A stretch of DNA of 64,000 bases, taken from Parcubacteria group bacterium. GTDB taxonomy: Bacteria > Patescibacteriota > Minisyncoccia > Phycocordibacterales > UBA2135. This document shows, piece after piece, positions 6,827 to 51,359 of this stretch (the stretch's first letter is position 1; each line of letters begins with the position of its first letter). The DNA lies in NCBI GenBank assembly GCA_016180525.1, contig JACPBB010000003.1, forward strand, positions 38,395-102,394, read 5' to 3'. The translations under genes and the position numbers were made by a program. The notes beneath the pieces were generated by a model. It worked only from the letters and a program-made list of their open reading frames with translations. It searched no databases and had not been told where the DNA came from.

Positions 6827-7514
6827 TCCGTTTAGGAAAAATAATAACTATTAAACGCAGTGCGAGAACTGCAATAATAAATAAAGCTGAAATTAAAGAA
6901 ATGGAAACAAAGCCATACAAGTAGCTTGTGCTTTCAAGCCACCCGCGAAAACCCATTGCAACCACGTGAAGCAGAACAAAGCTAAACGCAAGATACCCAA
7001 GCCGTTGAATTGTCTTCCATTGTTTGGGGTTCATCTGCGACGCGACTGCCGGAATAGACGTTACGGAAACAACTGAAAAAATAAACAGCGCGAGTGTCCC
7101 AAAGAGAGCAGATATTTCACCGGTAAAATTTAATTTTCCGCTCTCAAGAAAAAATTTTGGATAATACGCCGGTGAAAGAAGCGCGAGCGAAATAACGCCG
7201 TGAAGCGCGGCAATGCTGAATCCAAAGACGCCAAGGGGCTTGCGCAGATATAACTTTTGTTCAAATGTGCAAGGCCAAAAGCGCGCAAGTGGCCCGAGTA
7301 AAAATGAAAAGCCGATAAGAATAGTACTTGAGAGTGCCAGAACTTTGTTGGTAATAAACAAAGGAATCTGCTCAAGCGGCACATCGCGAAGTACATTATA
7401 TCGAACAAATGCGTACGCAAAAGAAATGACAAAAACGACGGCAAATATGATAACTGTGGTTTTCCATCCGTTAGGAGATGTTTGTTTTATTTCTTCCATC
7501 TTTAAATTATACAA
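6819..7514 (-). CDS. Polytopic membrane protein, ferric-reductase-like transmembrane domain (MsrQ-like) candidate
   Basis: About 6 TM helices with paired His in 'AALHGVISL' and 'LLHVVAMGF', consistent with heme-binding ferric reductase-type domains. It overlaps the end of the flavodoxin-like gene by 8 nt, suggesting a functional pair. Confidence 0.4.
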   Translation of the reverse strand: MYNLKMEEIKQTSPNGWKTTVIIFAVVFVISFAYAFVRYNVLRDVPLEQIPLFITNKVLALSSTILIGFSFLLGPLARFWPCTFEQKLYLRKPLGVFGFSIAALHGVISLALLSPAYYPKFFLESGKLNFTGEISALFGTLALFIFSVVSVTSIPAVASQMNPKQWKTIQRLGYLAFSFVLLHVVAMGFRGWLESTSYLYGFVSISLISALFIIAVLALRLIVIIFPKRSE

Positions 7515-10315: not shown

Positions 10316-10492
10316 ATTTTTAAACTTTTAATTTATACTTGGATATTCGACCTTTATATATCATTATACTCCATTATACCTCGCAGCTACCGCCCTGCGA
10401 CCCGTAGTTCCTCAACTTTCTAGCGCAAATACGAAAAACATAAGAAATGCAAAGATAGGAAGTACAACATATTCTTGTTACATGGCAATAAT

Positions 10493-10560
10493 TATTTCGG
10501 CTAGCGAGGAACGAAATGAAAATTGGTATTTTCATTTCGTCCGAGCGAAGACGAAATATA
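10493..10560. repeat. Imperfect long hairpin element, copy 1 of a 2-copy family (conserved flanks, variable apical stem)
   Basis: tatttcggctagcgagga-[acgaaatgaaaa ttggta ttttcatttcgt]-ccgagcgaagacgaaata. It is the reverse-complement counterpart of 39775..39839. Confidence 0.6.
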
Positions 10561-10589
10561 GGTTCCGCGGAGCAGTCCCCGCGAAACCC

Positions 10590-11438
10590 TTATTTTTTTG
10601 CCCGATACGCAAAAAAGGCAAAAATTCCGATAATAATAATTCCCCAGACTAATTCAGGAACAGTAGACAAGGCAGAAAATGCTTTTTGTGACCAGAGATT
10701 AAGAGATTTTCCGATATCTGCCTGTAACGATGGCGACCAAAATGCGTTTTCGGTAAATGCGAGTGTAAGAAGGACAATTCCCATAATAAGAAACACCACT
10801 TCAGCGAGCATATTTGTTGAGTGAATAAACATTATCTTAGAGCCAATTTTGATTTCTAATAATCTCCCCTTAATGAACGTGGAATTCTCAATTTGAAGCC
10901 GATCATAAAAATACGCGGCGATAAAAAGTGGGAATGTCATCCCAAACACATAGGCAAACGTTACAATAATAGCTTTCCAAAATGCGGCAGATACAACTGC
11001 AAGCGCCATGGCACCCGCTAACACCGGCGCACAGCATGAAGTCGCCGCTCCCGAAAACATACCGAGAAAAAATACCGATTTTGAATTCTGCATTCCCGCT
11101 GTTTTTAAGACACGCTTAGGCATTGGAACAAGTGACAATCCCTTGCCGCTTATTGAAAGCACGGAAAGCGTGAGCATGAATATGCCGCCCACAATATACA
11201 TTTCTTTGTGAAAATCGCGGAATATTTCGGCAAGCCATGCGGCGCCAAGACCAATCGGTACCAAAATTGCCGCAATGCCCGCAAAAAAGACCAGGGTCAT
11301 TTTCAGTATATGTTTCTTTTCACGAAACGCAGAGGCAAGGTAGGCTGGCAAAAGCACGGTAATACAGCATGGCGCAAACAAGGCAACCATACCCGCAAGA
11401 AACGCGGCAATAATTGACGCGGAAAAAATAATGTCCAT
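10590..11438 (-). CDS. DsbD/CcdA-like (DsbD_2 family) polytopic membrane protein
   Basis: Cys pairs inside TM segments, 'ALFAPCCITVLLP' and 'AATSCCAPVLAGA'; 8-9 TM helices. Confidence 0.5.
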   Translation of the reverse strand: MDIIFSASIIAAFLAGMVALFAPCCITVLLPAYLASAFREKKHILKMTLVFFAGIAAILVPIGLGAAWLAEIFRDFHKEMYIVGGIFMLTLSVLSISGKGLSLVPMPKRVLKTAGMQNSKSVFFLGMFSGAATSCCAPVLAGAMALAVVSAAFWKAIIVTFAYVFGMTFPLFIAAYFYDRLQIENSTFIKGRLLEIKIGSKIMFIHSTNMLAEVVFLIMGIVLLTLAFTENAFWSPSLQADIGKSLNLWSQKAFSALSTVPELVWGIIIIGIFAFFAYRAKK

Positions 11439-35815: not shown

Positions 35816-37084
35816 TTATCTGCGGGCTCTTTTAGTACGATATCCCCCAAATCTGCGGGGTTTAAAGCGTCCTCCGCCTCCTCTAGAGTGGTGCGAAAAA
35901 CGAGAGGGCGAGAGTCGAAATTCACGTGGTTCATATTGCAGAGTAACTTGCGGAAGTTCCGCGGGAAGTTGTGAAACAGAGAGCCGTTTTCCCGTGAGCC
36001 GCTCTATCGCACGGATTTCCCGCTCATCTCCCGGCATCGCGAATGTGATGGCCCTTCCTCCTGCTCCCGCGCGCGCGGTACGGCCTATGCGGTGCACGTA
36101 GTCATGGGATGTAGACGGCAAATCATAATTTATAACCGTTTCAATGCCAACGACATCAATACCGCGAGAAGCAATATCTGTTGCGATAAGAACGCGATAC
36201 TTCCCCGACTTAAAACCCTGAAGCGCCTCCCGTCGTTGACCGAGAGACCTGTTTGAATGAATTTCCGCGGCAAGAACCCCCAAGGTGCGAAGATGCCGAG
36301 TTACTTTTTTTGCACCGTGTTTTGTTCTTGTAAAAACAAGTGTTGACCCATGGTAGTCTTCCAATAATTTAGCAAGAAGGCGTATTTTCTGTTCTTTTCC
36401 CACAATAAAAAGTTCTTGAATAATATTTTCCGCAGTCGTCCCCGGCCGCGCAATCTCCACCCGAACAGGTAATTTCATATAGGCAGACGCTAGCTTCATA
36501 ATTTCAGGCGGCATAGTCGCGGAGAAAAGCATCGTCTGCCGTTCTTTTGGAATTGTTTCAAAAATTTTCCGAATCTGCGGCAGAAATCCCATGTCAAGCA
36601 TGCGGTCTGCTTCGTCAAGCACAACTATTTTAACCGTATTGAGCCGCACATTCTTTTGATTGAGGTGGTCAATAAGACGCCCGGGTGTCGCGATAATAAT
36701 ATGCGGATTTTTGGAGAGCGCGCGCACCTGCGCGCCGATGGAAAGCCCACCGATTAAAACCGCCGTTCGGAGCTGAAGACCTCTTCCGATATGTCCAAGC
36801 ATTTCATCAACCTGGAGTGCCAACTCTCTCGTAGGAAGCACCACAAGTCCTTGACCTTTTACCTGCGCAAGCCGTTGAATCATTGGCAGACCGAAGGCAA
36901 GTGTTTTACCTGTTCCTGTTTGCGCGATGCCCGCAATATCTTTCCCTGTAATAGCCACAGGAATTGCCTGCGCCTGTATGGGAGTAGGCGTTTTAAATTG
37001 GAGAGACTCTACTATTTGAAGCAGTGCCGGAGCAAGGCCTAGGCCATGAAAGCCCGCCGCGCCTTCTTTGTTGGAATGAGGCAT
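35816..37084 (-). CDS. DEAD-box ATP-dependent RNA helicase
   Basis: Q-motif 'FKTPTPIQAQAIP', motif I 'AQTGTGKT', motif II 'DEAD', motif III 'SAT', motif VI 'HRIGRTARAG'; RGG-rich C-terminus. Confidence 0.9.
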   Translation of the reverse strand: MPHSNKEGAAGFHGLGLAPALLQIVESLQFKTPTPIQAQAIPVAITGKDIAGIAQTGTGKTLAFGLPMIQRLAQVKGQGLVVLPTRELALQVDEMLGHIGRGLQLRTAVLIGGLSIGAQVRALSKNPHIIIATPGRLIDHLNQKNVRLNTVKIVVLDEADRMLDMGFLPQIRKIFETIPKERQTMLFSATMPPEIMKLASAYMKLPVRVEIARPGTTAENIIQELFIVGKEQKIRLLAKLLEDYHGSTLVFTRTKHGAKKVTRHLRTLGVLAAEIHSNRSLGQRREALQGFKSGKYRVLIATDIASRGIDVVGIETVINYDLPSTSHDYVHRIGRTARAGAGGRAITFAMPGDEREIRAIERLTGKRLSVSQLPAELPQVTLQYEPREFRLSPSRFSHHSRGGGGRFKPRRFGGYRTKRARR

Positions 37085-37171
37085 ATTTTAGTCCTTTGAG
37101 TATAGTACACTTGTGCCGCAAAAGCAAAGAAAAAAACCGCCCGACGTATATCGAAACGGTTGTTGTTTACA

Positions 37172-38161
37172 TTACGCGTGAGTAAGTTTCTGAAGATTCC
37201 GCTCGGCTTCCGCTTTCTTTTCCTCTGCCTTTTGAATTGCAACAAGCCGTGCTCGTTCTTTTGTTCGTACCTTGTGCTCTACAAGCAAAAGAGCTTCTGG
37301 AGAGCCGATGAAACATGCTTCTTCTACGCTCTTAACGAGACGGTGTGCTGAAACGGGATGTTTGTAATCTTTAAGTTCATTTTGAAGCGCAAGTTCTTTC
37401 AATTTTTCTAAAGACTTTTTATCAAGCATGAAGATCCATTTTCGCAATGTATTCAGTTCTCCTAAAGCAGACAAAATTCCAATACTCCATGGTTTGGCAT
37501 ATCCAATAATTGCATCGTCTTCTTCTGATTCCCAGATAAAATGAATGAATTTGCGAAGGAATTGTATTACTTGCTTTTCTTGGTGTGACCTTCTCCCCTC
37601 TTCTTTCACTGGTAAATTTCGTATGACAATATGATCAAAATTTTTTTCCGTTCTAAAAAATTTCTGAACAGCAACAAAAAGATTCGGTGAGTCAGAGGGC
37701 TTGAGCCATTCGTTCCACTTTTCTTCAAAATGTTCATACCACGGGCCCTGCTCATCTAGTTTAAAGAAGTGATCAACGAGCTCGTAAAACGCCTTACGCG
37801 CAACAAACTGACGCAACTCATGCTCTCCAATGGAGTTACGATTGGAACGATTTCCGTGAACATTATAATATTTTAATTCATCAAGACTTTTCCCTTGGGG
37901 GCGAAACAAGAAAGCATCTTCCCAGCCATCAGCAATTGTCAAATAAAATTGAATTCTATCGTGAGAGGAATATTCAGGCTCGCTGTAGTCACATTTATGT
38001 AAAGGAACATCAAATCCCACATGAAGAAGTCCGAGCATTTCATCAAATACATTCGTGGTATTCCAGCGCTGCAACCATTCATGCCAATTCATAATTGGTC
38101 GAATTTCTCGAAAAATAAGAGGTGTAAGTGACTCTATGACGATCTTTGTCGTGGTGGTCAT
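37172..38161 (-). CDS. Hypothetical protein
   Basis: 329 aa, Trp/Glu-rich, C-terminal coiled-coil; no motif. Confidence 0.35.
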   Translation of the reverse strand: MTTTTKIVIESLTPLIFREIRPIMNWHEWLQRWNTTNVFDEMLGLLHVGFDVPLHKCDYSEPEYSSHDRIQFYLTIADGWEDAFLFRPQGKSLDELKYYNVHGNRSNRNSIGEHELRQFVARKAFYELVDHFFKLDEQGPWYEHFEEKWNEWLKPSDSPNLFVAVQKFFRTEKNFDHIVIRNLPVKEEGRRSHQEKQVIQFLRKFIHFIWESEEDDAIIGYAKPWSIGILSALGELNTLRKWIFMLDKKSLEKLKELALQNELKDYKHPVSAHRLVKSVEEACFIGSPEALLLVEHKVRTKERARLVAIQKAEEKKAEAERNLQKLTHA

Positions 38162-38262
38162 GCGGTAGCCTCCGTCTTTGGGTTATGCCCTGTACTGTGA
38201 CAGGACTGGGGTACTCCCACAATCACCTTACTTTATCTGTTTCTCATAAGTCAAGTATTTTT

Positions 38263-38607
38263 CTATTGCTTAAATTCAAATCCAAATATGCCGAACTTTT
38301 GTATTTTTTCAGTGTATCCTGGATATGACACGTACATTTTTTTCATTTCTTCCACAGATTCTACATGAGGCATTATTTTTTTAAATGGAATTTCTTTTAC
38401 CATCGCCTCTATGCTCGGCCAATGATATTTTTTGTTCACTATTTTTGAAAACGAATCCTCCCCGCATACAAACTTTATTCTATCCCCTATGGCAATCGAC
38501 TGATACTTAACCGTTGCCGCCCTCGTTTCTATTTCTTTAGCCCCGCTTTTAAGTTCCTCAAAGCGTGCTTTATCAACTTTTCTAAATCTAAAAATCAATA
38601 TTGTCAT
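38263..38607 (-). CDS. ASCH (PUA-like) domain protein
   Basis: 'LKSGAKEIETRAAT' fits the ASCH G-x-K-x-x-E-x-R core; about 114 aa, the typical size. Confidence 0.5.
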   Translation of the reverse strand: MTILIFRFRKVDKARFEELKSGAKEIETRAATVKYQSIAIGDRIKFVCGEDSFSKIVNKKYHWPSIEAMVKEIPFKKIMPHVESVEEMKKMYVSYPGYTEKIQKFGIFGFEFKQ

Positions 38608-38619
38608 TATTTCAGTATA

Positions 38620-38650
38620 ACAAAACCGCCAATGTATTGGCGGTTATTTC
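38620..38650 (-). terminator. Rho-independent terminator downstream of ltaE
   Basis: Perfect 10-bp stem aaccgccaat-gt-attggcggtt followed on the minus strand by ttttgtta. Confidence 0.55.
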
Positions 38651-38669
38651 ACTATTTAACAGCAGATTT

Positions 38670-39686
38670 TTAATATTTTTTAATATCTTCTATGAGCGCG
38701 GTCACGTCATCTTCAGTCGTATCAAATGAGGCCATGAAACGGCACAAGCCCTTACTGTCCCAATCATAGAAAAACCATTTTCCATGCAACGCACGTAGCT
38801 TATATTCGCCAAAACGAACAAAAACAGAATTCGCCTCTACCGGATATTCGGGAACATATCCAGTCTCTTCGCGCAACGTGCGAGCAAGAAGCGCAGCCAT
38901 TTCATTTGCATGAAGCGCGTTCTTTCTCCACAACTCATTGGAGAGCAGGGCATCAAACTGTGCCGCAATGAATCGTGTTTTTGAAACGGTCTGCATCCCC
39001 TGTTTCTGAATATATTTAAATTTTTCCGCGAGTTCATGTTCAAAAAATATCACCGATTCGGCAAGCATCGCACCATTTTTTGTTCCACCGAAAGAAAGTA
39101 CGTCAACGCCTGAATCTCTTGCAAGTGATAATTTTTCGTTTAAACTGACAACCGCGTTTGCAAAACGAGCCCCATCAATGTGGAAAAGCATTTTATGTTT
39201 GTGCGCGAAATCAGCAAGCGCGCATAATTCTTTACGAGTATAAACCGTTTCAAATTCAGTCGGTTGCGCGACAGAAATAACTTTTGGCTGCGGATGATGT
39301 TTGTCGCCAAAACCGCAGACATGCGGCTCAATGAGCGGAACAGTTAATTTTCCGTTTTCACCATCAATTTGAATCATGGTACAACCGGTAAACTTGCTCG
39401 GGGCACCGCATTCATCCACGTGTAAATGCGAGGTGCGCGCGCAGATAATAGAGTTCCATGATTGTGTACATGCTGATAGCGCAAGCACATTTGCGGCGGT
39501 TCCGGTAGTTACAAAAAAGGTTTCTGCAGTAAGACCAAAATTATCTTTAAACTTCCGCCACACAGACTCGGTATATGGGTCATCACCGTATGCTGGAGTA
39601 TGACCACAGTCTGCTTTTATAATCGCCTCTAAAACTGCAGGATGAATGCCGGAGTTATTATCGCTTCCGAATCCTCGCTCTTGCAT
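38670..39686 (-). CDS. ltaE: Low-specificity L-threonine aldolase (PLP-dependent, beta-eliminating lyase fold)
   Basis: N-terminus 'FGSDNNSGIHPAVLEAI' and the PLP-lysine region 'SFGGTKNGAM' match the threonine aldolase family; 338 aa. Confidence 0.75.
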   Translation of the reverse strand: MQERGFGSDNNSGIHPAVLEAIIKADCGHTPAYGDDPYTESVWRKFKDNFGLTAETFFVTTGTAANVLALSACTQSWNSIICARTSHLHVDECGAPSKFTGCTMIQIDGENGKLTVPLIEPHVCGFGDKHHPQPKVISVAQPTEFETVYTRKELCALADFAHKHKMLFHIDGARFANAVVSLNEKLSLARDSGVDVLSFGGTKNGAMLAESVIFFEHELAEKFKYIQKQGMQTVSKTRFIAAQFDALLSNELWRKNALHANEMAALLARTLREETGYVPEYPVEANSVFVRFGEYKLRALHGKWFFYDWDSKGLCRFMASFDTTEDDVTALIEDIKKY

Positions 39687-39774
39687 TTGTTATATTCCAC
39701 AATGACAATTCTATTAGCATTTCTAGCATACAGAAATAAGTTGTCAAAATTCTTTTTATATATATGATTTTCAT

Positions 39775-39839
39775 ATATTTCGTCTTCGCTCGGACGAAGT
39801 GAGCATACGTGCTCACTTCGCTCCTCGCTAGCCGAAATA
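39775..39839. repeat. Imperfect long hairpin element, copy 2 (reverse orientation) of the 10493..10560 family
   Basis: rc = tatttcggctagcgagga-[gcgaagtgagca cgta tgctcacttcgt]-ccgagcgaagacgaaata. The flanks are identical to copy 1 and the apical stem differs with compensating changes. Confidence 0.6.
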
Positions 39840-39842
39840 AAA

Positions 39843-39880
39843 CAACCCCTCACTCTTTTAGAGCAAGGGGTTATTTTACA
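39843..39880 (-). terminator. Rho-independent terminator candidate downstream of the small ORF 39898..40104
   Basis: aacccct-TGCTCTAAAAGAGTGA-ggggtt followed on the minus strand by gttttatttcgg. Confidence 0.4.
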
Positions 39881-39897
39881 TAAAAATGTTCTTGAGT

Positions 39898-40104
39898 TTA
39901 TTCTGCCACTGCTTCATCTGCCGCTCCGTTATCCATCGCTCCATCATCCGCTGCCATTCCTGCATCTCCCGCTACTGCCGCTCCCTGCTCTACGGTTGCA
40001 TCAGCCGGAACGACATCTGCCGTGCCGTTTCCTTTCAAGAAATACCATCCTCCCGCAATAACAACCACCGCGACGACAACCCAGATAAGTATTTTGTTGT
40101 CCAT
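39898..40104 (-). CDS. Small membrane-anchored protein with Ala/Asp-rich tail, hypothetical
   Basis: 68 aa, N-terminal TM then a low-complexity acidic tail; there is an inverse-strand ORF artefact opposite. Confidence 0.3.
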   Translation of the reverse strand: MDNKILIWVVVAVVVIAGGWYFLKGNGTADVVPADATVEQGAAVAGDAGMAADDGAMDNGAADEAVAE

Positions 40105-40207
40105 ACAAATGCGTTAAAATTAACTATTAATAAGTTTGAAAAAAGTATACACGACCCTTAACAATTTGCAACTCTTTTCAGAAAGATTTTCCTAAAAGCA
40201 TTTTACA

Positions 40208-40393
40208 CTATTTTACTGGAATAACAAAAATGGCGATAAGATACGCGACTAATCCTGGCACAAGACCCGTGAATATAACAATAAGAAGCCAAATAACCCT
40301 CAAAATGACTGGGTCAACGGCTAAATATTCACCGAGACCACCACAAATACCCGCGAACACCTTATTTGTTCTGCTTCTGTACAAATGTTTCAT
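40208..40393 (-). CDS. PspC-domain protein (phage-shock protein C family)
   Basis: 'LYRSRTNKVFAGICGGLGEYLAVDPVILRVIWLL' is the PspC domain signature. The start is taken at the internal MKHLYRS, since the longer ORF overlaps the upstream gene. Confidence 0.6.
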   Translation of the reverse strand: MKHLYRSRTNKVFAGICGGLGEYLAVDPVILRVIWLLIVIFTGLVPGLVAYLIAIFVIPVK

Positions 40394-40400
40394 GGATTTT

Positions 40401-40931
40401 TTATTCACCCTTTTGTTCGCTTTTTCGTGCCTTACCCGTCTTTCTCGCGAGCTGCTCACTCTGTTTTCTGTATGAAAACAGAAACACGATGAGTAACAGC
40501 ACAAATAAAATATGGAGCCCGTATTCGCTCAAAAATGGATATCCGGGAATATACAATTCATAAACCCTCACAAGCAAAACTAAAACAAACAACGCGATAA
40601 ATGTCCTATACATATTGTTTGCCTCCGTGTAGATGTTGATTTTCTCATCTGTTCTCGCGAGCGTGACAAGCTTATCTCCATCAAATGATTTTACAAATGA
40701 AATGTCTTTAAGAATCGGCTCAATAACGAGGGAGCCAAATCTGCTTACCACGAGTCCGGCAAAATAATACACAAAAATGCCGATAATAATGTCTGGATGG
40801 ATGAGCGAATATGAAGTAAATTTTTCAAGCGCGACAACAAACAAAACCCCCGGAAGCAGGTAATTAAAAAGATTATACGAAGTTATTTTGTTTAGAAGGT
40901 CTTTCATCCCGTTTATTATAGCATTAATCAA
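40401..40931 (-). CDS. Hypothetical membrane protein
   Basis: 176 aa, about 4 TM helices. Confidence 0.35.
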   Translation of the reverse strand: MINAIINGMKDLLNKITSYNLFNYLLPGVLFVVALEKFTSYSLIHPDIIIGIFVYYFAGLVVSRFGSLVIEPILKDISFVKSFDGDKLVTLARTDEKINIYTEANNMYRTFIALFVLVLLVRVYELYIPGYPFLSEYGLHILFVLLLIVFLFSYRKQSEQLARKTGKARKSEQKGE

Positions 40932-40963
40932 ATCGTCTACGAGAGTTCCGTTATCCCCTTAAC

Positions 40964-40999
40964 AACATTCCAATCCGCCAGCTGGCGGATTGGAATGTT
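40964..40999. repeat. Perfect 18-bp palindrome, member 1 of the 'AACATTCCAA' palindromic element family
   Basis: aacattccaatccgccag|ctggcggattggaatgtt; it shares its outer arms and flanks (cctta... / ...gttgtatg) with 44760..44789. Confidence 0.6.
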
Positions 41000-41030
41000 G
41001 TATGGTTAAAAAATCGCTTTTCCGTCGTAA

Positions 41031-41735
41031 TCAATTTTTTGCAAACTCCGCGCCGAAACTGTGAATCTTTACAGACTTTTTCCATTTAAAATTCTTGTCT
41101 ATTTTCAATCCCGTTGGTTTTTTAACGACAAAGAATTTTTTCTGAAAAAAATTGAGGCTGTGAGCCAATTGTTGAATTTCAGGCTTGGTGTGCATAAAAC
41201 CAGTGAGTTTTATTTTGCCTAAATTATACTGAACTGTTTGCCCAATTAAGTTTTTGTTTTTAATTTCATAATAATCAGAAGCCACAAAAAGAGACCCTCG
41301 GGGTTTAAGGATCCGATAAAATTCTTTAAATACTGTATGCAAATCTGAAACCTGTGGAAGAGAATAGATAGAGAGAATGATGTCAATTGAATTGGCAGGC
41401 AGTTTTGTTTTTGTAAAATCTCCCTTTTTAACTTCTAAATTAGTGAGATTGAACATTTTCTTCCTTTTTTTAGCCAGATTAAGCATAAAATCACTTATAT
41501 CCATACAAATTACCCTTTTTGCACCTCGCTGTAAGGCAAGGTGGGAAAAATATCCAGAGCCCCCTCCTGCATCAAATATAGTTTTGCCCGACAAATTTTT
41601 AGGAAGAAATTTTAAAAGCTTATCTAAAACTTCACTGTCAATCTTTCCTTCATCTCTAATTTTCTCATGCGCTCTGCCAATCCTGTTATAAAGTTTTCTG
41701 GCGAGTTTTGTAGCTTCTGCTTGAGTAATTTTCAT
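41031..41735 (-). CDS. Class I SAM-dependent methyltransferase
   Basis: Motif I 'IFDAGGGSGYFS', motif II 'RVICMDIS', and post-I acidic residues. Confidence 0.7.
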   Translation of the reverse strand: MKITQAEATKLARKLYNRIGRAHEKIRDEGKIDSEVLDKLLKFLPKNLSGKTIFDAGGGSGYFSHLALQRGAKRVICMDISDFMLNLAKKRKKMFNLTNLEVKKGDFTKTKLPANSIDIILSIYSLPQVSDLHTVFKEFYRILKPRGSLFVASDYYEIKNKNLIGQTVQYNLGKIKLTGFMHTKPEIQQLAHSLNFFQKKFFVVKKPTGLKIDKNFKWKKSVKIHSFGAEFAKN

Positions 41736-41775
41736 AATTTAATTTTTATGCGGAGATTTTTTTATACAGCCATTA

Positions 41776-42738
41776 CTAATACGCTGTCGTAAGAGTGCGG
41801 TGGTATGGCTTATCGTTGGGATTTTTTGTTTGTCCCATGAGCCATAGGTGGTCGTTGATGCCGATTGAAGGAGTCTGCTTGCCGTTTTTACCGAGCTCCG
41901 TTTTCATTTTCTCTACTGCCCAAATGGTGTTTGCCCTAATCTCAACCTCCTCCGAACTGCCATGTGGAATTTGGACAAACGTATCTATTTTTTTCTCAAG
42001 TTCTGTCGCATACGTCAGTATCCCCAGCTTTCTTAAAGATTGTGGCAGTTTATAATCCGCGCACGCGGTAAACTCTTCCAAATGACTTAAATCGCCGAAC
42101 CCCTCAGCGCCAAAAGTTTGGTATATATCTTCAACTAAAAGCTGCGCTCGTTTATAAAAATACACTTTTTTACCTTCATATAAAGAGACGTCTTCAAACG
42201 AGGGGAAATTAGTAATAATAAGGCCAAGTAGTTTTGTAGCATTTCCCTTTGCCGCCTGAACAAATTTTACGAAATTGCCATCGTATTTTTCTAAAAGGAT
42301 GGATGCGACTTCTTTTGTTATTTTCCATCTTTCCTCAAGAAGCGGTATCTCAGCATTCCCCCGAAGTATTTTTTGATACTCTTCTTTACTGATTGCGGAA
42401 CGATACTCTATATCTAAAATAGGCACCCCCTCCTCAATCGCTCGCATTATCGCGGCAATCATACCCCAAGACCCGTCATATCGTTCCCCCTTCCACTCAA
42501 GCGTCCATTTTGGATCGCCCCAATAGCAAAAACTTGTTGAATTAAAAACAAGGAGCAGATTCAGCTTATCAATATCTTTAAGGTGTGAGAATGCGATTGG
42601 TGACCCGCTCAACCAATGCGGAAGATTTCCATGCTGAAATGTCTTACAAAACGTAGCGATGTTCTCATTATTTATTTTGACGCTTTTTGAACTATCAACT
42701 ACAAAACGAGTTGTTTCCAAGATTTTATTCATAACCAC
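41776..42738 (-). CDS. Queuosine salvage family protein (DUF2419/Q_salvage; Q-nucleoside/nucleotide hydrolase-like)
   Basis: Size and blocks 'FCYWGDPKW', 'YFYKRAQLLVEDIY', 'ACADYKLPQSLRKLGIL' resemble the DUF2419 (QNG1/C9orf64) family; recalled from memory, not searched. Confidence 0.5.
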   Translation of the reverse strand: MVMNKILETTRFVVDSSKSVKINNENIATFCKTFQHGNLPHWLSGSPIAFSHLKDIDKLNLLLVFNSTSFCYWGDPKWTLEWKGERYDGSWGMIAAIMRAIEEGVPILDIEYRSAISKEEYQKILRGNAEIPLLEERWKITKEVASILLEKYDGNFVKFVQAAKGNATKLLGLIITNFPSFEDVSLYEGKKVYFYKRAQLLVEDIYQTFGAEGFGDLSHLEEFTACADYKLPQSLRKLGILTYATELEKKIDTFVQIPHGSSEEVEIRANTIWAVEKMKTELGKNGKQTPSIGINDHLWLMGQTKNPNDKPYHRTLTTAY

Positions 42739-42760
42739 AGTATATCAAATTAGAAAATTT

Positions 42761-43219
42761 TTATTGGGTATGCAGAAATTGTTTACTAAACTCCGCGCGG
42801 ATTGCGTCGCGAATGGCAAACAGTTTTTCTTCAGGAAGTTTCAGGTCGGGTTTTATTGGATAATTTTTCCCCCACTGCTCATCTACAAATGTAATGCCAA
42901 GATATGTCCGAGGAGATTTATATCGCGGAATAAAATGCATGTGCCCGTGTCCTTTGTGTTCACGAAACATGTTTCCGAGCCACGCGTAATTCATGTGGTC
43001 AGGTTGCCAGAGATTTCCAAGAACTTTTTCATACTCTTCGGCAATTCTTTTGAGCTCGTTTAATTCTTGAGGAGTTAATTGAGAAAACCTCTGCATTTCG
43101 CCAGGTCGAGAAAGCCACGCGTACGCGCGCCCCAAATAATACTGGTCGTCATGAAGAAAGAGCGTGAAGTGCTCATACTTCTTCAACACAAACGGCTCAT
43201 ACTGCGGCAAATAGGTCAT
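42761..43219 (-). CDS. HIT-family (histidine triad) hydrolase
   Basis: 'HKGHGHMHFIP' is the H-phi-H-phi-H-phi-phi histidine triad. Confidence 0.6.
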   Translation of the reverse strand: MTYLPQYEPFVLKKYEHFTLFLHDDQYYLGRAYAWLSRPGEMQRFSQLTPQELNELKRIAEEYEKVLGNLWQPDHMNYAWLGNMFREHKGHGHMHFIPRYKSPRTYLGITFVDEQWGKNYPIKPDLKLPEEKLFAIRDAIRAEFSKQFLHTQ

Positions 43220-43372
43220 GATTTAGTTTTTATCTTTGCGCTTCATTAGAGTTGGGGTTGAATCAGTGGTTCCAATAAAATAATAAATTGGTGTCAGGTA
43301 CTTTTTATTTTTTCTTAATTCAAAAATACTGTTTTTTAATGTTTATTTTATCCATTCACTAAATAAACTATC

Positions 43373-43696
43373 TCAAATACCAATTTCAATTTTCCACTCC
43401 ATTGGAATCAGGGTTAAGTTTATAGGATATTTAAAATCTGTAGATTGTTTCCAATCCGTAAGCTTTAATTTGAGTTCTTTGATAAGTTTGTCAGCATCTT
43501 TAATTTTCTGCGCGGACATTCTTACAAATATTTCCACAGGAGCAATTTTAACTTTTATATGAGCTGAATTGGTATATGTAAAAACATCTTCTATCCCCGT
43601 AACCTCGGAAACAATATCCCGAACAGCTTTTGATAGAGCTTGTATATCCCCTTCGGAGATCTGCTCATTGTCATATTCAATATTAATCATTGGCAT
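43373..43696 (-). CDS. Hypothetical small protein (possible tautomerase-like, N-terminal Met-Pro)
   Basis: Begins MPMINIEY...; Pro1 after Met removal is the hallmark of tautomerase superfamily members, but this is weak. Very low GC. Confidence 0.3.
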   Translation of the reverse strand: MPMINIEYDNEQISEGDIQALSKAVRDIVSEVTGIEDVFTYTNSAHIKVKIAPVEIFVRMSAQKIKDADKLIKELKLKLTDWKQSTDFKYPINLTLIPMEWKIEIGI

Positions 43697-43720
43697 AATA
43701 TGTGTATTAAAATTCTTATA

Positions 43721-43752
43721 AATTAATTCTCAAATACTGCTTCTATATTATT
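43721..43752. repeat. 32-nt direct repeat, copy 1 (5'-leader/promoter element of 43373..43696)
   Basis: ttaattctcaaatactgcttctatattatttc; 31/32 identical to 44719..44750. Confidence 0.6.
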
Positions 43753-44692
43753 TCTTTGATTTAAAAAGTTGTTTATTAAATTCTTCACGACCCATTGTGT
43801 TTAAAAATTTTATTTTTTCTTTTTCACTTTCAAAATCTCCTTCTTCTCCCCAGCTAATTCCCAGAAGAATAATGAGTTTTAATGCATCAAAAATATGCAG
43901 CCGTTCTTCTGTGTCAAGCACACGATATTTTATATACTCCTCTATGATAAAAGCGGCTTCATATTCCTTAAACCCCCTCTTTGGAGGGAATGCCCACCAA
44001 TATATAAGTCCTGCGACATCATAGATAAGGTAAAAATAAAAACTCATATCAAAATCAAGAACGGCAACAATATCTTTACCTTTAAACAAAAAGTTGCTGT
44101 AATTTAAATCGGCGTGACAAATACCTTTCGGCATACTATTCGGCAACTGTATATCTTCCAATTCATTTTTAAGCCATTGTTCGCGCTTCGGTAAACTTTC
44201 TGTTCGATTCTGTTTGCAATATATTCTCAAACAATAATCAGCATCAAATGGCTCTCTGTCTTTAAAAAATTCAAGTTCATTATTTTTAGTGATGTTGTGC
44301 AGTTGTGCTATTAGTTTTATAACTTCAGCAATTTCTGTTTTGTTAAACGCGTCATTTGGATTTTGGCCGTGCGTGCCTTCAATAAATGCCGTAATCATGT
44401 ACGGCTTTTCTTTATATATTCCAAAAAAATCTCCAGTGCGATTTTTGATTATAGAAAGAACCGGGTAGTTGCTATCTTGCAAAAAATTAATCAGTTGCAC
44501 TTCAAATGCAACGTGTTTTTTTGTTCTGTTTTCGTAGTATCGTAAAACAAATTTTCCTTCGGTGGTTTTTAGAAGAACAGTTGTCTGTCCTGCCCCGCTC
44601 CCAAATGTTTCATAGCCGCAATATTCTCCCACGTCATAGTTTGACAGAATTTCAAGAAAATCATTTTCATTTATGGTAGTTTGTACAGGCAT
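43748..44692 (-). CDS. Aminoglycoside/choline-kinase-type phosphotransferase (APH family)
   Basis: Catalytic loop 'ICHADLNYSNFLF' (H-x-D-x-x-x-x-N) and 'VLDFDMSF' (D-F-D); 314 aa; very low GC. Confidence 0.65.
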   Translation of the reverse strand: MPVQTTINENDFLEILSNYDVGEYCGYETFGSGAGQTTVLLKTTEGKFVLRYYENRTKKHVAFEVQLINFLQDSNYPVLSIIKNRTGDFFGIYKEKPYMITAFIEGTHGQNPNDAFNKTEIAEVIKLIAQLHNITKNNELEFFKDREPFDADYCLRIYCKQNRTESLPKREQWLKNELEDIQLPNSMPKGICHADLNYSNFLFKGKDIVAVLDFDMSFYFYLIYDVAGLIYWWAFPPKRGFKEYEAAFIIEEYIKYRVLDTEERLHIFDALKLIILLGISWGEEGDFESEKEKIKFLNTMGREEFNKQLFKSKK

Positions 44693-44718
44693 AGAAATCG
44701 CTGTCAGATACTTTTTTA

Positions 44719-44750
44719 TTAATTCCCAAATACTGCTTCTATATTATTTC
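44719..44750. repeat. 32-nt direct repeat, copy 2 (5'-leader/promoter element of the APH-like gene)
   Basis: ttaattcccaaatactgcttctatattatttc. Confidence 0.6.
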
Positions 44751-44759
44751 CCTTACTGA

Positions 44760-44789
44760 CATTCCAACATTCTCAAGAATGTTGGAATG
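44760..44789. repeat. Palindromic element, member 2 of the 'AACATTCCAA' family
   Basis: cattccaacattct-ca-agaatgttggaatg (14-bp perfect stem). Confidence 0.6.
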
Positions 44790-44792
44790 TTG

Positions 44793-45128
44793 TTATGTTA
44801 TTTTTCCTCTTTGGAAAAAATTTATGAGGGTTTTATTGGCAAATTTTTTAACATCCTCCGGGGGAGGTTCATAATAAGAAACTTCTACTCTTCCATTTCT
44901 AAAATAAACATAGCCTTGCAATAATATATCACTGAGCTCAATGCCCATTGCGTGGCGTACAAGCGCATGTCCTTCGTGAGAAAGATATAACTTAAAATTT
45001 TTTGTTCCTACAAGCGTAATATCATTTCCGTTTGAAAATCTTTCTTGAACGATTTTCCTGGAAGACCCGACCCCGAATTTAATTTCAAATTCCGGAACAT
45101 ATTCTTTGCTTTCAAAATTTTTTTCCAT
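44793..45128 (-). CDS. Hypothetical protein
   Basis: 111 aa, no motif, low GC. Confidence 0.3.
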   Translation of the reverse strand: MEKNFESKEYVPEFEIKFGVGSSRKIVQERFSNGNDITLVGTKNFKLYLSHEGHALVRHAMGIELSDILLQGYVYFRNGRVEVSYYEPPPEDVKKFANKTLINFFQRGKIT

Positions 45129-45271
45129 TACTTTGAGAATATATTAAAAAAATTATTTATGCAAAATGTTAAATTCCTCTCAATGAAAAAAGGGGCTCAC
45201 ATGTTTTAAATAGTTGACAAATAAACTATAATATATTATAAATTAATTTAGAGGTTCAAAACTACTTCAAG

Positions 45272-46528
45272 GTGCGGCATATGCGGTGGTTTGATGTCAT
45301 CGGACTCATTCTCACTATTTCGGCATTCTTCAGTTTCTTGAATTATAAGTTCTTTAAACTACCCAAAACCGTGGGGCTCATGATTATCTCTCTCGGTTCC
45401 GCATTCTGTCTTATGGGACTTGAAATGATGGGAATTGGTTCAACCGTAAAATTAGCAGAAGCTCTGCACTCCATTAACTTTAGTGAAACACTACTACAAG
45501 GAGTCTTATGTTTCCTGCTATTCGCCGGAGCCCTTCATATTGATATTGGAGATTTTCTTGAACAAAAATGGTCAATTGGTTTTCTCGCCTCTCTGGGTGT
45601 TGTCATATCCGCATTCATTATTGGAGTAGGCGCGTATGTATTGTTTCCGTTATTTGGATTTACACTACCCTTTTTGGTCTGCTTCCTTTTCGGAGCGCTC
45701 ATTTCTCCAACTGACCCAGTCGCGACTCTCGCCATTCTCAAAAACTCAAAAGCCCCAACAAGTATTAAAATGAAAATCGCGGGAGAATCGCTTTTAAATG
45801 ATGGCATGGCAGTTGTGTTGTTCGTGGTGGCGCTTACTCTTCTCAATAATGAAAAAAGCGTATCTTCAATGGATGTCGTAGTGATGTTTGTGCAAGAAGT
45901 ACTCGGGGGTATCGCGTATGGACTTGCTATTGGCTATATTGCCTACGAACTTATTCGGCGCGTTGATGACTATAATGTGGAAATATTACTCTCGCTTTCT
46001 CTCGTGACGGGGGGCTATGCGCTCGCTTCAGTGCTTCATGTTTCAGGACCCCTTGCAATGGCAGTTGCCGGACTCTTTATAGGAAACCATGCCCGAAAAT
46101 ATGGAATGTCCGAAAAAACTCGCAAACATCTTGATATTTTCTGGAATGTCATTGACGATGTTCTCAATGTAATATTGTTTGTCCTTGTTGGACTTGAGGC
46201 GCTACTCATCAACGTAGAGCATGAGTACGCGCTCGCGGGACTTTTTATAATTCCACTCGTACTCTGTGCGCGCTTTATAAGTGTCTCGGCGGGAGCTGTA
46301 CTTTTGCGGCCGCTCAAGCCCTTTAGCCCAAATTCTATCCCCTTGCTAACCTGGGGAGGACTACGCGGCGGCATTTCATTTGCTTTAGCGCTTTCCTTGC
46401 CATATGGGGAAGGACGAGACGCGCTCATTCTTATTACATATATGGTTGTCGTGTTTTCCGTTATTGCGCAAGGGCTCACTATGAATAAAATTTTTGCCTA
46501 CCTTGAAGGCAAAAATAGTGTGTCGTAA
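45272..46528 (+). CDS. Na+/H+ antiporter, CPA1 (NhaP-type) family
   Basis: 12-13 TM helices, 'FGALISPTDPVATLAIL' (the conserved CPA1 TDP region), 418 aa. Confidence 0.8.
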   Translation: MRHMRWFDVIGLILTISAFFSFLNYKFFKLPKTVGLMIISLGSAFCLMGLEMMGIGSTVKLAEALHSINFSETLLQGVLCFLLFAGALHIDIGDFLEQKWSIGFLASLGVVISAFIIGVGAYVLFPLFGFTLPFLVCFLFGALISPTDPVATLAILKNSKAPTSIKMKIAGESLLNDGMAVVLFVVALTLLNNEKSVSSMDVVVMFVQEVLGGIAYGLAIGYIAYELIRRVDDYNVEILLSLSLVTGGYALASVLHVSGPLAMAVAGLFIGNHARKYGMSEKTRKHLDIFWNVIDDVLNVILFVLVGLEALLINVEHEYALAGLFIIPLVLCARFISVSAGAVLLRPLKPFSPNSIPLLTWGGLRGGISFALALSLPYGEGRDALILITYMVVVFSVIAQGLTMNKIFAYLEGKNSVS

Positions 46529-46542
46529 AATTTACAAACACA

Positions 46543-46570
46543 AAGCCCGCTTTTGAGCGGGTTTTTTTGT
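46543..46570 (+). terminator. Rho-independent terminator
   Basis: cccgct-tttg-agcggg followed by ttttttt. Confidence 0.6.
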
Positions 46571-46603
46571 TTTACCTAACTACGGACCGACTAATCTTTG
46601 TTC

Positions 46604-48436
46604 TCAATTCCGTCTATGTTTAACTCGCTCATTTTCCGTGAGATGTTGTTTACGAAGCCTAACGGATGCAGGTGTTACTTCAAGAAATTCATCTTCCGTC
46701 ATCACCTCAAGCCCGCGTTCAATCGTAAGCGTGTAGGGCGGAGTAAGAACTATCGCTTCATCTGCGGCTTTTGAACGAACGTTGCTAAATGCTTTTCCTT
46801 TTGTCGGGTTCACCATCATCTCCTCACCTTTTGCGGTATTCCCAATAACCATTCCTTCGTACACCCCCGTACCGGGACCAATGTAAAGCACTCCACGCTC
46901 CTGCAAATACCATAATGCGTAGCCGAGCGCCTTGCCTGTTGCCATTGAAATCATGGAGCCCACGACTCGTTTTTGAATTTCTCCGGCATGTTTTCTAAAG
47001 CCCACAACACGTGAAGAAAGAATGCCTTCTCCCTTCGTGTCAATAACAAACTGACTTCTGTATCCCAAAAGCCCGCGAGTCGGCCCTTCAAAGAAAATCC
47101 GCACCGAAACACCCTCTTGTGTCTGTGACATATTGGTGAGTACAAAGCCACGCTTCCCCAGCCGCTCAATAATAATTCCCTGATATTCCTGCGGCGTGTC
47201 CACAATAACTTCTTCAAACGGTTCAAGCAGCACGCCGTTTTCTTCTTTCGTAATGACGCGCGGCTGTGAAACTTGTACCTCGTACCCCGCGCGGCGCATA
47301 TTTTCAAGAAGAATCGCGATGTGGAGTTCTCCCCTACCTGAAACACGGAAATACTCCGTGGATGAGAAATCAACACGAAGTCCCACATTGACTTCAATCT
47401 CACGCTTTAGATATTCACGAAGCTGGCGCGAAGTGACATATTTCCCCTCCTTTCCCGCAAATGGCGAGTTGTTTACTAAAAAAGAAAGTTCTATGGTCGG
47501 CTCGTCAACAGCAATTGCAGGAAGCGGCGGAGAGCCTTCGTTGTCGGTAACCGTCTCTCCAATGTAAATATCAGGAAGCCCGGCAATAAGCGCGATGTCT
47601 CCCGCGCCGATTAGAGGAGCCTCAACTTTTTGAATTCCGTTAAAACTAAAGATTTTTGTTATTTTTCCCGTTCGCGTTTCTCCCTGACCAGGTAGGCTCT
47701 CTCCGATCAATCCGCGCGGCTTTTTTATAAACACATTCATATTCGGCTTCACGGTACCTTCATAAATTCGCGCGACGGCAAGCCGTCCTAAAAAATTATC
47801 GTATCCAAGATTAAACGGCTGAAAGAGGAGCGGTTTTTCACGAAGTACCTGTGATGAAGCTGGGGGTATGTGAGAGAGAATCGTATCTAAAAGCGGAGAA
47901 AGATCTTTTGACTCGTCTTCAAGTTTTAATTTTGCGATACCCTGCTTTCCGATAGCATATACAATCGGAAAATGCGCCTGCGTATCGGAAGCGCCCAGTT
48001 CAAGAAACAAATCAAGTACTTGCTCTTCGGTGCGATGCGGGTCTGCCGCGGGCCGGTCAATTTTATTAATGACCACAATCGGCCGTAATCCAAGCTCAAG
48101 AGATTTTTTAAGAACAAACCTTGTCTGCGGCATCGGCCCCTCCTGCGCGTCAACAACAAGAAGCACCGAGTCAATGGAGCGCAACACGCGTTCAACCTCA
48201 GAGCCAAAGTCGGCATGTCCCGGTGTATCCACAATATTTATTTTTGTTCCTTTATACATGAGTGAGGCATTTTTCGCGTATATAGTAATGCCACGCTCAA
48301 GCTCAAGCGTGTTTGAGTCCATTGACGCACCCTCTTTCTCTGCGCCCGTCTCCCGCAGGAGAGCGTCAGTTAAAGTGGTTTTCCCATGGTCAACGTGAGC
48401 AATAATCGCGATATTACGTATTTCAGTGGGTTTCAT
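46604..48436 (-). CDS. typA: Translational GTPase TypA/BipA
   Basis: 'IRNIAIIAHVDHGKTTLTDALL' G1, 'DTPGHADF' G3, 'NKIDR' G4; 610 aa with the EF-G-like domain order. Confidence 0.9.
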   Translation of the reverse strand: MKPTEIRNIAIIAHVDHGKTTLTDALLRETGAEKEGASMDSNTLELERGITIYAKNASLMYKGTKINIVDTPGHADFGSEVERVLRSIDSVLLVVDAQEGPMPQTRFVLKKSLELGLRPIVVINKIDRPAADPHRTEEQVLDLFLELGASDTQAHFPIVYAIGKQGIAKLKLEDESKDLSPLLDTILSHIPPASSQVLREKPLLFQPFNLGYDNFLGRLAVARIYEGTVKPNMNVFIKKPRGLIGESLPGQGETRTGKITKIFSFNGIQKVEAPLIGAGDIALIAGLPDIYIGETVTDNEGSPPLPAIAVDEPTIELSFLVNNSPFAGKEGKYVTSRQLREYLKREIEVNVGLRVDFSSTEYFRVSGRGELHIAILLENMRRAGYEVQVSQPRVITKEENGVLLEPFEEVIVDTPQEYQGIIIERLGKRGFVLTNMSQTQEGVSVRIFFEGPTRGLLGYRSQFVIDTKGEGILSSRVVGFRKHAGEIQKRVVGSMISMATGKALGYALWYLQERGVLYIGPGTGVYEGMVIGNTAKGEEMMVNPTKGKAFSNVRSKAADEAIVLTPPYTLTIERGLEVMTEDEFLEVTPASVRLRKQHLTENERVKHRRN

Positions 48437-49957: not shown

Positions 49958-49980
49958 GAAAAATTATTATTTGTTAAAAA

Positions 49981-50010
49981 CATTCCAACATTCTATAGAA
50001 TATTGGAATG
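49981..50010. repeat. Palindromic element, member 3 of the 'AACATTCCAA' family; flanked by A5/T6 runs (bidirectional terminator-like)
   Basis: aaaaa-cattccaacattcta-t-agaatattggaatg-tttttt (one mismatch in the stem). Confidence 0.55.
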
Positions 50011-50055
50011 TTTTTTGCCAATTTGTTAAAGTTAACAATTTAGATTTTTTATACA

Positions 50056-51167: not shown

Positions 51168-51359
51168 ATAAAAGCACTTCGTCTTATATAAGCTCCTCGG
51201 CTCAGAAATGAAAAATCTGATGAATTTTTCATTTCTCTCACTCTACGTCGCTTATAAATAGAGAATACATTTAATTATCCTTAAAATACACCAAAAATCA
51301 AGGAATACTTATCGTATAGAAAATCCCCACATCTATGTATAAGATGCGGGGACAAAAAA

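Follow-up and report, generated by a model that had tools for sequence, protein, structure and literature searches.

What is the function of a conserved hairpin that lies in front of ltaE in a member of the Parcubacteria? The hairpin was found in a 64,000-nt stretch of contig JACPBB010000003.1 (Parcubacteria group bacterium, GenBank assembly GCA_016180525.1), hereinafter the window. A sequence-only reading had described it as the second copy (copy 2) of a co-varying, near-palindromic element, oriented oppositely to the first copy (copy 1) relative to transcription, and had proposed that it could serve as an orientation-independent terminator, attenuator or operator. The present analysis confirms the repeat and its hairpin, and argues against a role as a regulator of ltaE. 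On balance, copy 2 is probably the solo 3' module of a modular, non-autonomous repeat resembling the repetitive extragenic palindrome (REP), bacterial interspersed mosaic element (BIME) and BOX repeats, with arms that are kept by a trans-acting factor.

Copy 2 occupies positions 39774–39842 on the + strand and has the sequence TATATTTCGTCTTCGCTCGGACGAA-GTGAGCAtacgTGCTCAC-TTCGCTCCTCGCTAGCCGAAATAAAA. It was assigned to the 3' module of the type-1 form of the repeat by arm matches, folding and a covariance model (91.2 bits, E = 8e-25). The 21-nt left arm, TTTCGTCTTCGCTCGGACGAA, is found exactly at 39778–39798 (+) and at 10536–10556 (−), while the 18-nt right arm, CCTCGCTAGCCGAAATAA, is found exactly at 39823–39840 (+) and at 10492–10509 (−). 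Each arm occurs exactly twice in the window, compared with 0.00 (left) and 0.08 (right) occurrences expected in shuffled sequences. The centres of the two copies are unlike, namely GTGAGCAtacgTGCTCAC in copy 2 and the self-complementary ATGAAAATaccaATTTTCAT in copy 1, and pairing is retained in both. The shared exact arms and compensating centres bear out a second, co-varying and near-palindromic copy. The two copies lie 29 kb apart and are inverted. Because all genes flanking them are on the − strand, they are oppositely oriented relative to transcription, as had been noted.

Both copies, on both strands, fold in prediction into one long imperfect hairpin with −26 to −34 kcal/mol (z = −5.5 to −6.6), a stability reached by none of 200 shuffled sequences. 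Specifically, copy 2 has an outer stem TATTTCG/CGAAATA, an inner and central stem CGAAGTGAGCA-tacg-TGCTCACTTCG (39795–39820), and a 3' tail AAAA. Its + strand carries two pyrimidine-rich internal loops, TCTTCGCTCGG and CTCCTCGCTAGC, and is designated the UC strand. Read on the other strand, these loops are tandem G-A mismatches, and the fold is 2–3 kcal/mol better. The unit is slightly larger than the sequence-only reading had drawn it. The hairpin itself is real, and it constitutes only the 3' module of a larger composite.

The central stem is well defined by covariation. In an alignment of 20 sequences, 30 cells show double changes (reached in none of 500 shuffles), and 96% of the central-stem cells are paired, compared with 36–50% when the partner is slid. 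Column pair 26-47, for example, switches from A-U to G-C. The arms are too invariant in this alignment to choose between one long hairpin and three local hairpins, both of which fit equally. Two diverged copies retrieved with the covariance model discriminate between them. (Loci collected from genomes and metagenomes are given hereinafter as L numbers.) The copy at L030 2991–3059 has an outer stem ATACG...CGTAA and an inner stem CAAGAT...ATCTTG, and the copy at L027 4681–4773 has TTTCAAC...GTTGAAA. These changes compensate one another in the long hairpin and break the local hairpins, so that only the pairing of the long hairpin is kept and three local hairpins are ruled out. The element thus forms one long hairpin with compensatory changes, in which an outer stem leads through conserved internal loops to an inner stem with a variable tip.

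The element is a member of a repeat family. A scan for exact matches to the left arm, with one genome per species, yielded 13 loci of the candidate phyla radiation (CPR) in seven metagenome-assembled genomes. Five loci are in Parcubacteria JACOYO01 and three in Lloydbacteria JACROH01; the titles of the remaining genomes are Paceibacterota, Patescibacteria, Parcubacteria, 'Saccharibacteria' and one further bacterium. One additional match, inside a Prevotellaceae gene, is an obvious chance match. A metagenome scan with the right arm alone yielded 22 loci, nearly all from groundwater projects, and the same locus as in the window, including the element, is present in four Logan assemblies of one study. 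As a reciprocal check against ascertainment, copies were compared in the arm that did not serve as query. It reaches 93–96% identity, compared with 47% in the centre and 26% over the adjoining 40 nt outside the element. The repeat family therefore exists in multiple copies (several per genome) in at least seven Parcubacteria/Patescibacteria genomes, with a density of about 1 per 30–100 kb and about 10–30 copies per genome. One metagenome contains near-identical 165-nt composites at separate loci (L019, L030 and L038), and tandem pairs occur in L030 and L027.

No matches were found in IMG/VR viral contigs in pattern scans with the left, right and type-2 arms, and a phage or viral origin was rejected on that basis. 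At the gathering threshold, Rfam 15 detects only tRNA and rRNA in the window and the 13 loci, and its permissive mode returns only sub-threshold chance matches. In the literature on CPR/Parcubacteria repeats, no description of such a repeat was found. The element is a previously undescribed family in a new host group and is ordinary in kind, namely an interspersed palindromic repeat.

Separately, several metagenomic contigs start (L003, L004) or end (L022, L023, L025, L028, L033) inside or beside it, which suggests that the assembly of metagenomes is interrupted at the repeat. The start of L004 is a Nextera mosaic-end remnant (GATGTGTATAAGAGACAG).

Alignment of longer stretches shows that the 65–70-nt hairpin is the 3' module of a composite that spans about 100–170 nt in full. 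The 5' part of the composite reads ATAAAGG(T/G)T, followed by one or two variable GC-rich hairpins with free stem sequence and a GCARAGC-type loop, with GTATT after each. Optional segments are ACTCGCnnnGCTCG and, after the first GTATT, ...ACTCGCnnnGCTCGnAC..., which comes with a second hairpin and a second GTATT. The stem enclosing the 5' part covaries, being GGTTC...GAACC, GGGT...ACCC, or TATAGGTCA...TGACCTATA. The 3' part reads RAACC-TRTR, then the long hairpin, then TAAA. The consensus of the long hairpin comprises an outer stem TTTCG/CGAAA, an inner stem CGAAR/YTTCG, a tip of free sequence, and the loops TC(G/A)CTCGGA in the 5' arm and CTCCTCG(C/T)T in the 3' arm. Pyrimidines are enriched in the two loops on the same strand, so that a comparison of the arms as direct repeats gives a higher similarity (78%) than one as inverted repeats (73%). 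The motif YTCGCTMG occurs in the same sense once in each arm and once or twice in the 5' module.

The modules vary in length and combination. The length of the 5' module is about 20 nt in L008 and L017 and exceeds 150 nt in L020, and the left-arm loop contains inserted stems in L022 and L031. Single-arm forms, TTTCGTC-TTCGCTCG-GACGAAA-TAAA, are present in L010, L013 and L015, and L017 has a single arm with an inverted loop. In L030, a type-2 3' module, GTAGCTCCTTGGCTCTGACATGA...TCATGTCACTCGCTCTATGTCGCTAATAAAA, is joined to the same 5' module.

The copies in the window illustrate this variation. Copy 1 (10490–10592, −; covariance model 92.1 bits) consists of a type-1 3' module (10490–10560) and a short 5' module, TAAGGGTT-hairpin-AACCTATA (10561–10592). 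The TAA stop codon of a CcdA-like gene (10590–10592) lies inside its 5' end, and its 5' hairpin was flagged by the terminator scan. Directly abutting the 5' end of copy 2 is an AT-only predicted hairpin of 8 bp, ATATATGA-ttt-TCATATAT (39758–39778, +), which was read from the sequence. It may be a vestigial or minimal 5' module, because other copies always have a hairpin directly 5' of TTTCG. A third, diverged solo hairpin is located at 51185–51259 (+; 22.6 bits, E about 0.0025), with an outer stem TATAAGC/GCTTATA, loops TCCTCGGCTC and TCTCACTCTACGTC, and a central stem GAAATGAAAAAT.../...ATTTTTCATTTC. Judged from these features, it probably belongs to the family and is related to the type-2 3' module at L030 2181–2252.

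The location of copy 2 near ltaE is as first described. The ltaE-like gene (38670–39686, −) encodes a predicted low-specificity L-threonine aldolase (Beta_elim_lyase domain, E = 9e-46, and homologue names), and the end of the element is 87 nt from its start codon at 39686. On the other side, copy 2 adjoins the intrinsic terminator of the upstream gene, which encodes a 68-aa protein (39898–40104, −) with a predicted membrane-anchor N-terminus and no Pfam match, and which was called as a gene in L001/L002. The earlier identification of this terminator (39843–39880, −) holds true. Its hairpin (about 39844–39872) has −27.1 kcal/mol on the − strand compared with −16.6 kcal/mol on the + strand, with G-U pairs only on the − strand, and in the permissive Rfam search it gave a terminator-like partial match on that strand. 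The U-tract, GUUUUAUUU (− strand of about 39832–39843), overlaps the first bases of copy 2 and doubles as the first strand of its outer stem. Copy 2 is thus positioned after a complete terminator and before the promoter region of ltaE.

The regulatory roles suggested for ltaE are not supported. The hairpin of copy 2 is followed by AAUAAAAC on the + strand or AUAUAUGAAAA on the − strand, neither of which is a U-tract, the terminator scan did not flag it, and a complete intrinsic terminator already lies upstream. A promoter scan at both copies detected no promoter within the element, and only the flanking hairpins are terminator-like. An operator, riboswitch or attenuator linked to ltaE is at odds with the closest ltaE homologue (63% identity), which has a different gene context and lacks the element, and no marks of a gene-specific operator were seen. 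The same element flanks dozens of unrelated genes elsewhere. 'Orientation-independent' is correct as a description, as both orientations are about equally frequent; the simplest meaning of the equal frequencies is a dispersed DNA repeat rather than a device for regulation in both directions. The element is therefore independent of ltaE and is not a canonical terminator. Copy 2 likely has little local effect, in that read-through transcripts would at most meet one more stable hairpin (−31 to −34 kcal/mol), and a secondary effect of the element as an RNA hairpin (a barrier or 3'-end protector) is conceivable.

The neighbouring genes are unrelated housekeeping genes, including those for Clp protease, tRNA synthetases, CorA, L9, pilins and others (124 neighbouring open reading frames (ORFs), Pfam). 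When copies are read along the UC strand, a gene on that strand precedes about 13 of them, and about 14 run antisense to the genes on both sides; three copies lie between convergent genes and very few between divergent genes. In four cases (L007, L013, L014 and copy 1), the stop codon of the upstream gene is part of the 5' ATAAAGG. In L009 (about 7095–7115), the right arm contains the last four codons and the TAG of a converging gene (...LYFG-TAG). The 3' end abuts an A-run, a GC hairpin and a T-run in at least 15 of about 28 loci, and copy 2 is alike in this respect.

This context raises the possibility that the element is a host-functional RNA, in which the hairpin in either orientation would be a 3'-end protector, a read-through barrier backing a terminator, or an RNase site, and the conserved internal loops would be a protein-binding platform, in roles such as those proposed for REP/BIME and BOX. 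Consistent with such a function, almost every copy lies downstream of a gene 3' end, the adjoining hairpins with T-runs and the overlapping stop codons tie copies to gene ends, the predicted hairpin is very stable (z about −6), the arms are conserved across distant genomes, and the strand with tandem G-A mismatches folds better. We nevertheless consider a host RNA, the leading alternative, unlikely, if worth serious attention. The hairpin has no U-tract after it in either orientation, and little transcription is expected at copy 2, which follows a complete terminator. There is no preference for orientation, and non-Watson-Crick stem positions (six G-T versus eight A-C) show no wobble bias towards one strand, so the antisense copies are unexplained. 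A hairpin of any sequence is enough for 3' protection, which leaves the invariant loops unexplained, and orthologous genes in relatives manage without the element.

A second RNA-based explanation is an independent or 3'-UTR-derived small RNA, whose exposed CUCCU and CUUCGCU loops would act as anti-Shine-Dalgarno seeds or as a protein sponge. The UC strand does contain CUCCUC, the anti-Shine-Dalgarno core, in an internal loop; a terminator often follows composite copies in the UC direction; and the multi-hairpin architecture with optional stems is like that of structured non-coding RNAs. This explanation is very improbable, as the 5' end at or inside the upstream stop codon leaves no room for a promoter, the element contains no promoter-like site and no wobble strand bias, and about half of the copies, copy 2 among them, run antisense to the local direction of transcription. 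More remote still is a short peptide gene or type I toxin on the opposite strand, where AGGAG-CGAA-ATG, resembling a Shine-Dalgarno sequence followed by a start codon, is located at the base of the central stem. Although nearly every type-1 copy retains AGGAG and ATG, the lengths of 69–73 nt put the downstream arm in all three frames (ISSERRRN, FVRAKTK and RPSEDE), no stop codon is conserved, and the ATG/CAT pair is simply part of the palindrome. A small ORF is excluded by these frame shifts with element length.

Comparison of related genomes shows that the element is present in a patchy manner. In 76 kb covering the CcdA-orthologous loci of four relatives (79–71% amino-acid identity), there are no matches to the element. 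The closest relative (79%) has, between its CcdA-like and DUF5676 genes, a 283-aa gene (L043 5733–6598); the corresponding segment of the window (10374–10603) instead has about 230 non-coding nt including copy 1. Far more distant (about 33–54% amino-acid identity), L008 has a copy directly after its CcdA-like gene. L008 seemed to support conserved synteny of copy 1 and the CcdA-like gene, which we rejected because the element is missing at the four closer orthologous loci. In 61 kb covering the DEAD-helicase loci of relatives, the sole match is a decayed type-1 copy of 19 bits (L049 3276–3343), which follows a 61-aa ORF in a relative with an 82% identical DEAD helicase. The decayed copy indicates that the family is old and that copies erode. 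Patchiness with intact, decayed and partial copies is a pattern typical of dispersed semi-selfish repeats.

To which known systems does the element correspond? REPs and the paired REPINs are short extragenic palindromes that lie mostly downstream of genes, between unidirectional or convergent ORFs, in singlet and paired forms (PMC3733652, PMC3337134). Like REP, REPIN and BIME, the family has singlets and long hairpins, conserved arms, a variable compensated spacer, mosaic motifs and no transposase of its own. REPs are defined by a stem of 6–13 bp and an unpaired terminal GTAG or CGTC tag (PMC3733652). In contrast, the element has no such unpaired tag: CGTC is within the paired TTTCGTC segment of type-1 copies, GTAG starts only one type-2 copy (L030 2181), and the type-2 copy of the window has TAAG. 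The resemblance to the tagged REP superfamily is thus superficial. Unlike those of a REPIN, the arms are in the same sense (head-to-tail-like), and only parts of the stem are inverted. Unlike REPs, which number hundreds per genome and are species-specific, the element has tens of copies at most and is common to many genera or candidate phyla. REPs, known from Enterobacteria and Pseudomonas, are mobilized by a cognate RAYT (a Y1 HUH transposase) encoded in the genome, usually flanked by REPs, while no RAYT was found here in about 430 kb with a weak probe.

BOX elements of Streptococcus pneumoniae (boxA-boxB(n)-boxC) are modular, intergenic and non-coding, have a stable fold and are present in about one hundred or fewer copies. 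BOX is not known to have a transposase or to occur outside one species group. Like BOX, the element has modules that are present or absent and variable in number, is intergenic, has a stable predicted fold and has no coding capacity. It differs from BOX in being unrelated in sequence and from another phylum, and BOX modules lack the logic of a hairpin with conserved arms and a free tip. In its modules, their combinations, copy number and folding, the element falls into the descriptive class of BOX/BIME-type mosaic interspersed repeats.

Rickettsia palindromic elements (RPEs) are typically located in frame inside genes and span 100–150 bp. The element is like RPEs in that selfish-looking palindromes persist in bacteria that depend on a host and have small, reduced genomes; the palindromes are common to more than one species and at times extend or alter ORF ends. 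It is unlike them in that its copies are intergenic and merely clip the stop-codon region, and there is no sequence similarity. RPEs are mentioned in PMC3733652. Integron attC sites are also comparable, as imperfect palindromes with conserved ends and unpaired positions and a variable tip that lie right after ORF stop codons; attC is recognized as a folded single strand, and the same idea may apply to the element. An attC identity was rejected, as no RYYYAAC/GTTRRRY (R''/R') is present at either end on either strand and there is no cassette array; no integrase (intI) was found near copies in Pfam scans of the neighbouring and window ORFs. Intrinsic terminators likewise have stable, GC-containing hairpins downstream of genes, but they end in a U-tract and do not need a sequence that is conserved across unrelated genes and genomes.

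Two classes of mobile element were considered as well. A transposable element of the miniature inverted-repeat type (MITE) was rejected because the composite has no terminal inverted repeats (5' ATAAAGGTTC versus 3' CGAAATAAA) and no target-site duplication. ATAAA was rejected as such a duplication because it is constant across copies, and the ends mismatch in L014, L026, L031 and L040; its constancy indicates part of the element or a fixed target instead. A fixed ATAAA at the left flank and right end fits a palindrome-associated transposable element derived from IS200/IS605. Such elements have similar subterminal hairpins at both ends on one strand, insert 3' of a fixed 4–5-nt target and have an orientation that depends on replication. 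Unlike in such an element, the 5' and 3' hairpins are not alike, and the window copies are opposite on one replichore. Finally, TIGR arrays of CPR bacteria are tandem units with box C/D-like motifs and paired spacers beside a tas (Nop-domain) gene (PMC12045711). A TIGR-Tas array was rejected, as copies are solitary or at most two, without RUGAUGA/CUGA motifs and without a tas gene nearby. By analogy, the element appears to work most like the REP/BIME and BOX mosaic repeats.

We therefore favor, with modest confidence, reading copy 2 as a solo 3' module within a REP/BIME/BOX-like repeat family. The element would be spread or maintained at the DNA level, and a putative trans-acting protein would recognize the folded arms or the repeated TCGCT motifs. 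Only copies with intact arms would stay active, while the tip would need only pairing. Copies would accumulate where they are tolerated, at gene 3' ends and beside the A/T runs of terminators, and would sometimes supply a stop codon. Any effect as terminator or RNA stabilizer would be secondary.

Several observations weigh against a mobile repeat. No transposase was detected by Pfam scans among the 124 neighbouring ORFs and 20 window ORFs, and no Y1-like or RAYT ORF was detected in about 430 kb (window and loci) with an approximate IS200 TnpA probe, a weak probe applied to a small sample. Neither a target-site duplication nor a filled-versus-empty pair was obtained at nucleotide resolution. 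The density is low compared with classical REPs. Exact arms are shared by genomes whose proteins are about 45–80% identical, which is stricter than in most selfish repeats and could reflect a host function instead. The similarity of the arms is higher in direct than in inverted comparison, and their same-strand pyrimidine loops, as read from the sequence, hint at strand-specific recognition of RNA or single-stranded DNA. In addition, the two window copies point in opposite directions within one replichore, along which the GC skew is always negative, and this argues against a strictly lagging-strand, IS200-like mechanism of single-stranded DNA insertion.

The direct-repeat character of the arms could also be explained by a double-stranded DNA binding array, in which YTCGCTMG would be bound by a nucleoid-associated or regulatory protein as an operator-, insulator- or gyrase/IHF-type site, as in BIMEs. 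The motif occurs three to four times in one orientation per composite, and the loops are invariant while the stems are changeable, in agreement with such an array. However, an array would not call for changes that compensate each other and so keep the hairpin, the neighbouring genes have no common regulon, and no candidate protein is known. We consider it quite improbable. Somewhat less doubtful, although still unlikely, is the proposal that the element is not junk DNA but the RNA or single-stranded DNA recognition site of a conserved putative Parcubacteria protein or ribonucleoprotein. In that case, the invariant same-strand loops TCGCTCGGA and CTCCTCGCT (tandem G-A on the other strand) would be held on a scaffold of free sequence.

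Copy 2 and ltaE are located within an accessory insert. The interval between the genes for BipA/TypA (46604–48436) and a DEAD-box helicase (35816–37084) spans about 9.5 kb in the window (about 37100–46600), compared with 0.05–1.6 kb in the nearest relatives (L051 and L049; DEAD helicase 80–82% identical). The insert contains ltaE, PspC, APH and methyltransferase-like genes, copy 2 and two AACATTCCAA hairpins, and the closest homologues of ltaE are outside CPR.

A second family of repeated hairpins is present at 40962–41001, 44759–44795 and 49969–50022, with arms AACATTCCAA...TTGGAATGTT, variable centres and flanking A- and T-runs, each directly after the stop codon of a − strand gene. From their sequence, they look like a set of bidirectional intrinsic terminators with shared sequence. 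A 43-nt intergenic direct repeat (88% identical; 43712–43754 and 44708–44750) flanks the APH-like gene (43748–44692), with one copy overlapping the 3' end of the gene and the other just upstream of its start. The segment 52023–60283 (−) contains six overlapping genes, encoding proteins of 557, 250, 418 (DUF6638), 685 (AAA ATPase), 392 and 458 aa. Pfam matches are lacking for most of them, and PADLOC matches for all. The GC content is 0.45–0.48, compared with about 0.41 elsewhere, and the block is possibly a system gained by horizontal transfer.

The result removes a tempting wrong annotation, namely that of an ltaE regulator. CPR/Patescibacteria genomes are strongly streamlined, at about 1 Mb, and in the usual description repeats and mobile DNA are scarce in them. 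Arms that stay about 95% identical across many candidate lineages, amid diverged surroundings, would therein represent either a very successful selfish element or a conserved cis-signal, the latter having gone unnoticed because the organisms are uncultured. The repeat marks variable regions, is a potential lineage marker, and provides a handle for fishing out the protein that binds it. If the element is indeed a recognition site, it would define a novel class of mobile elements that target hairpins, with a mobilizing enzyme of a new type, or, alternatively, a CPR-wide cis-acting RNA signal at gene ends, which could, for example, couple the end of translation, the formation of transcript 3' ends or RNA turnover in organisms whose regulatory repertoires are minimal.

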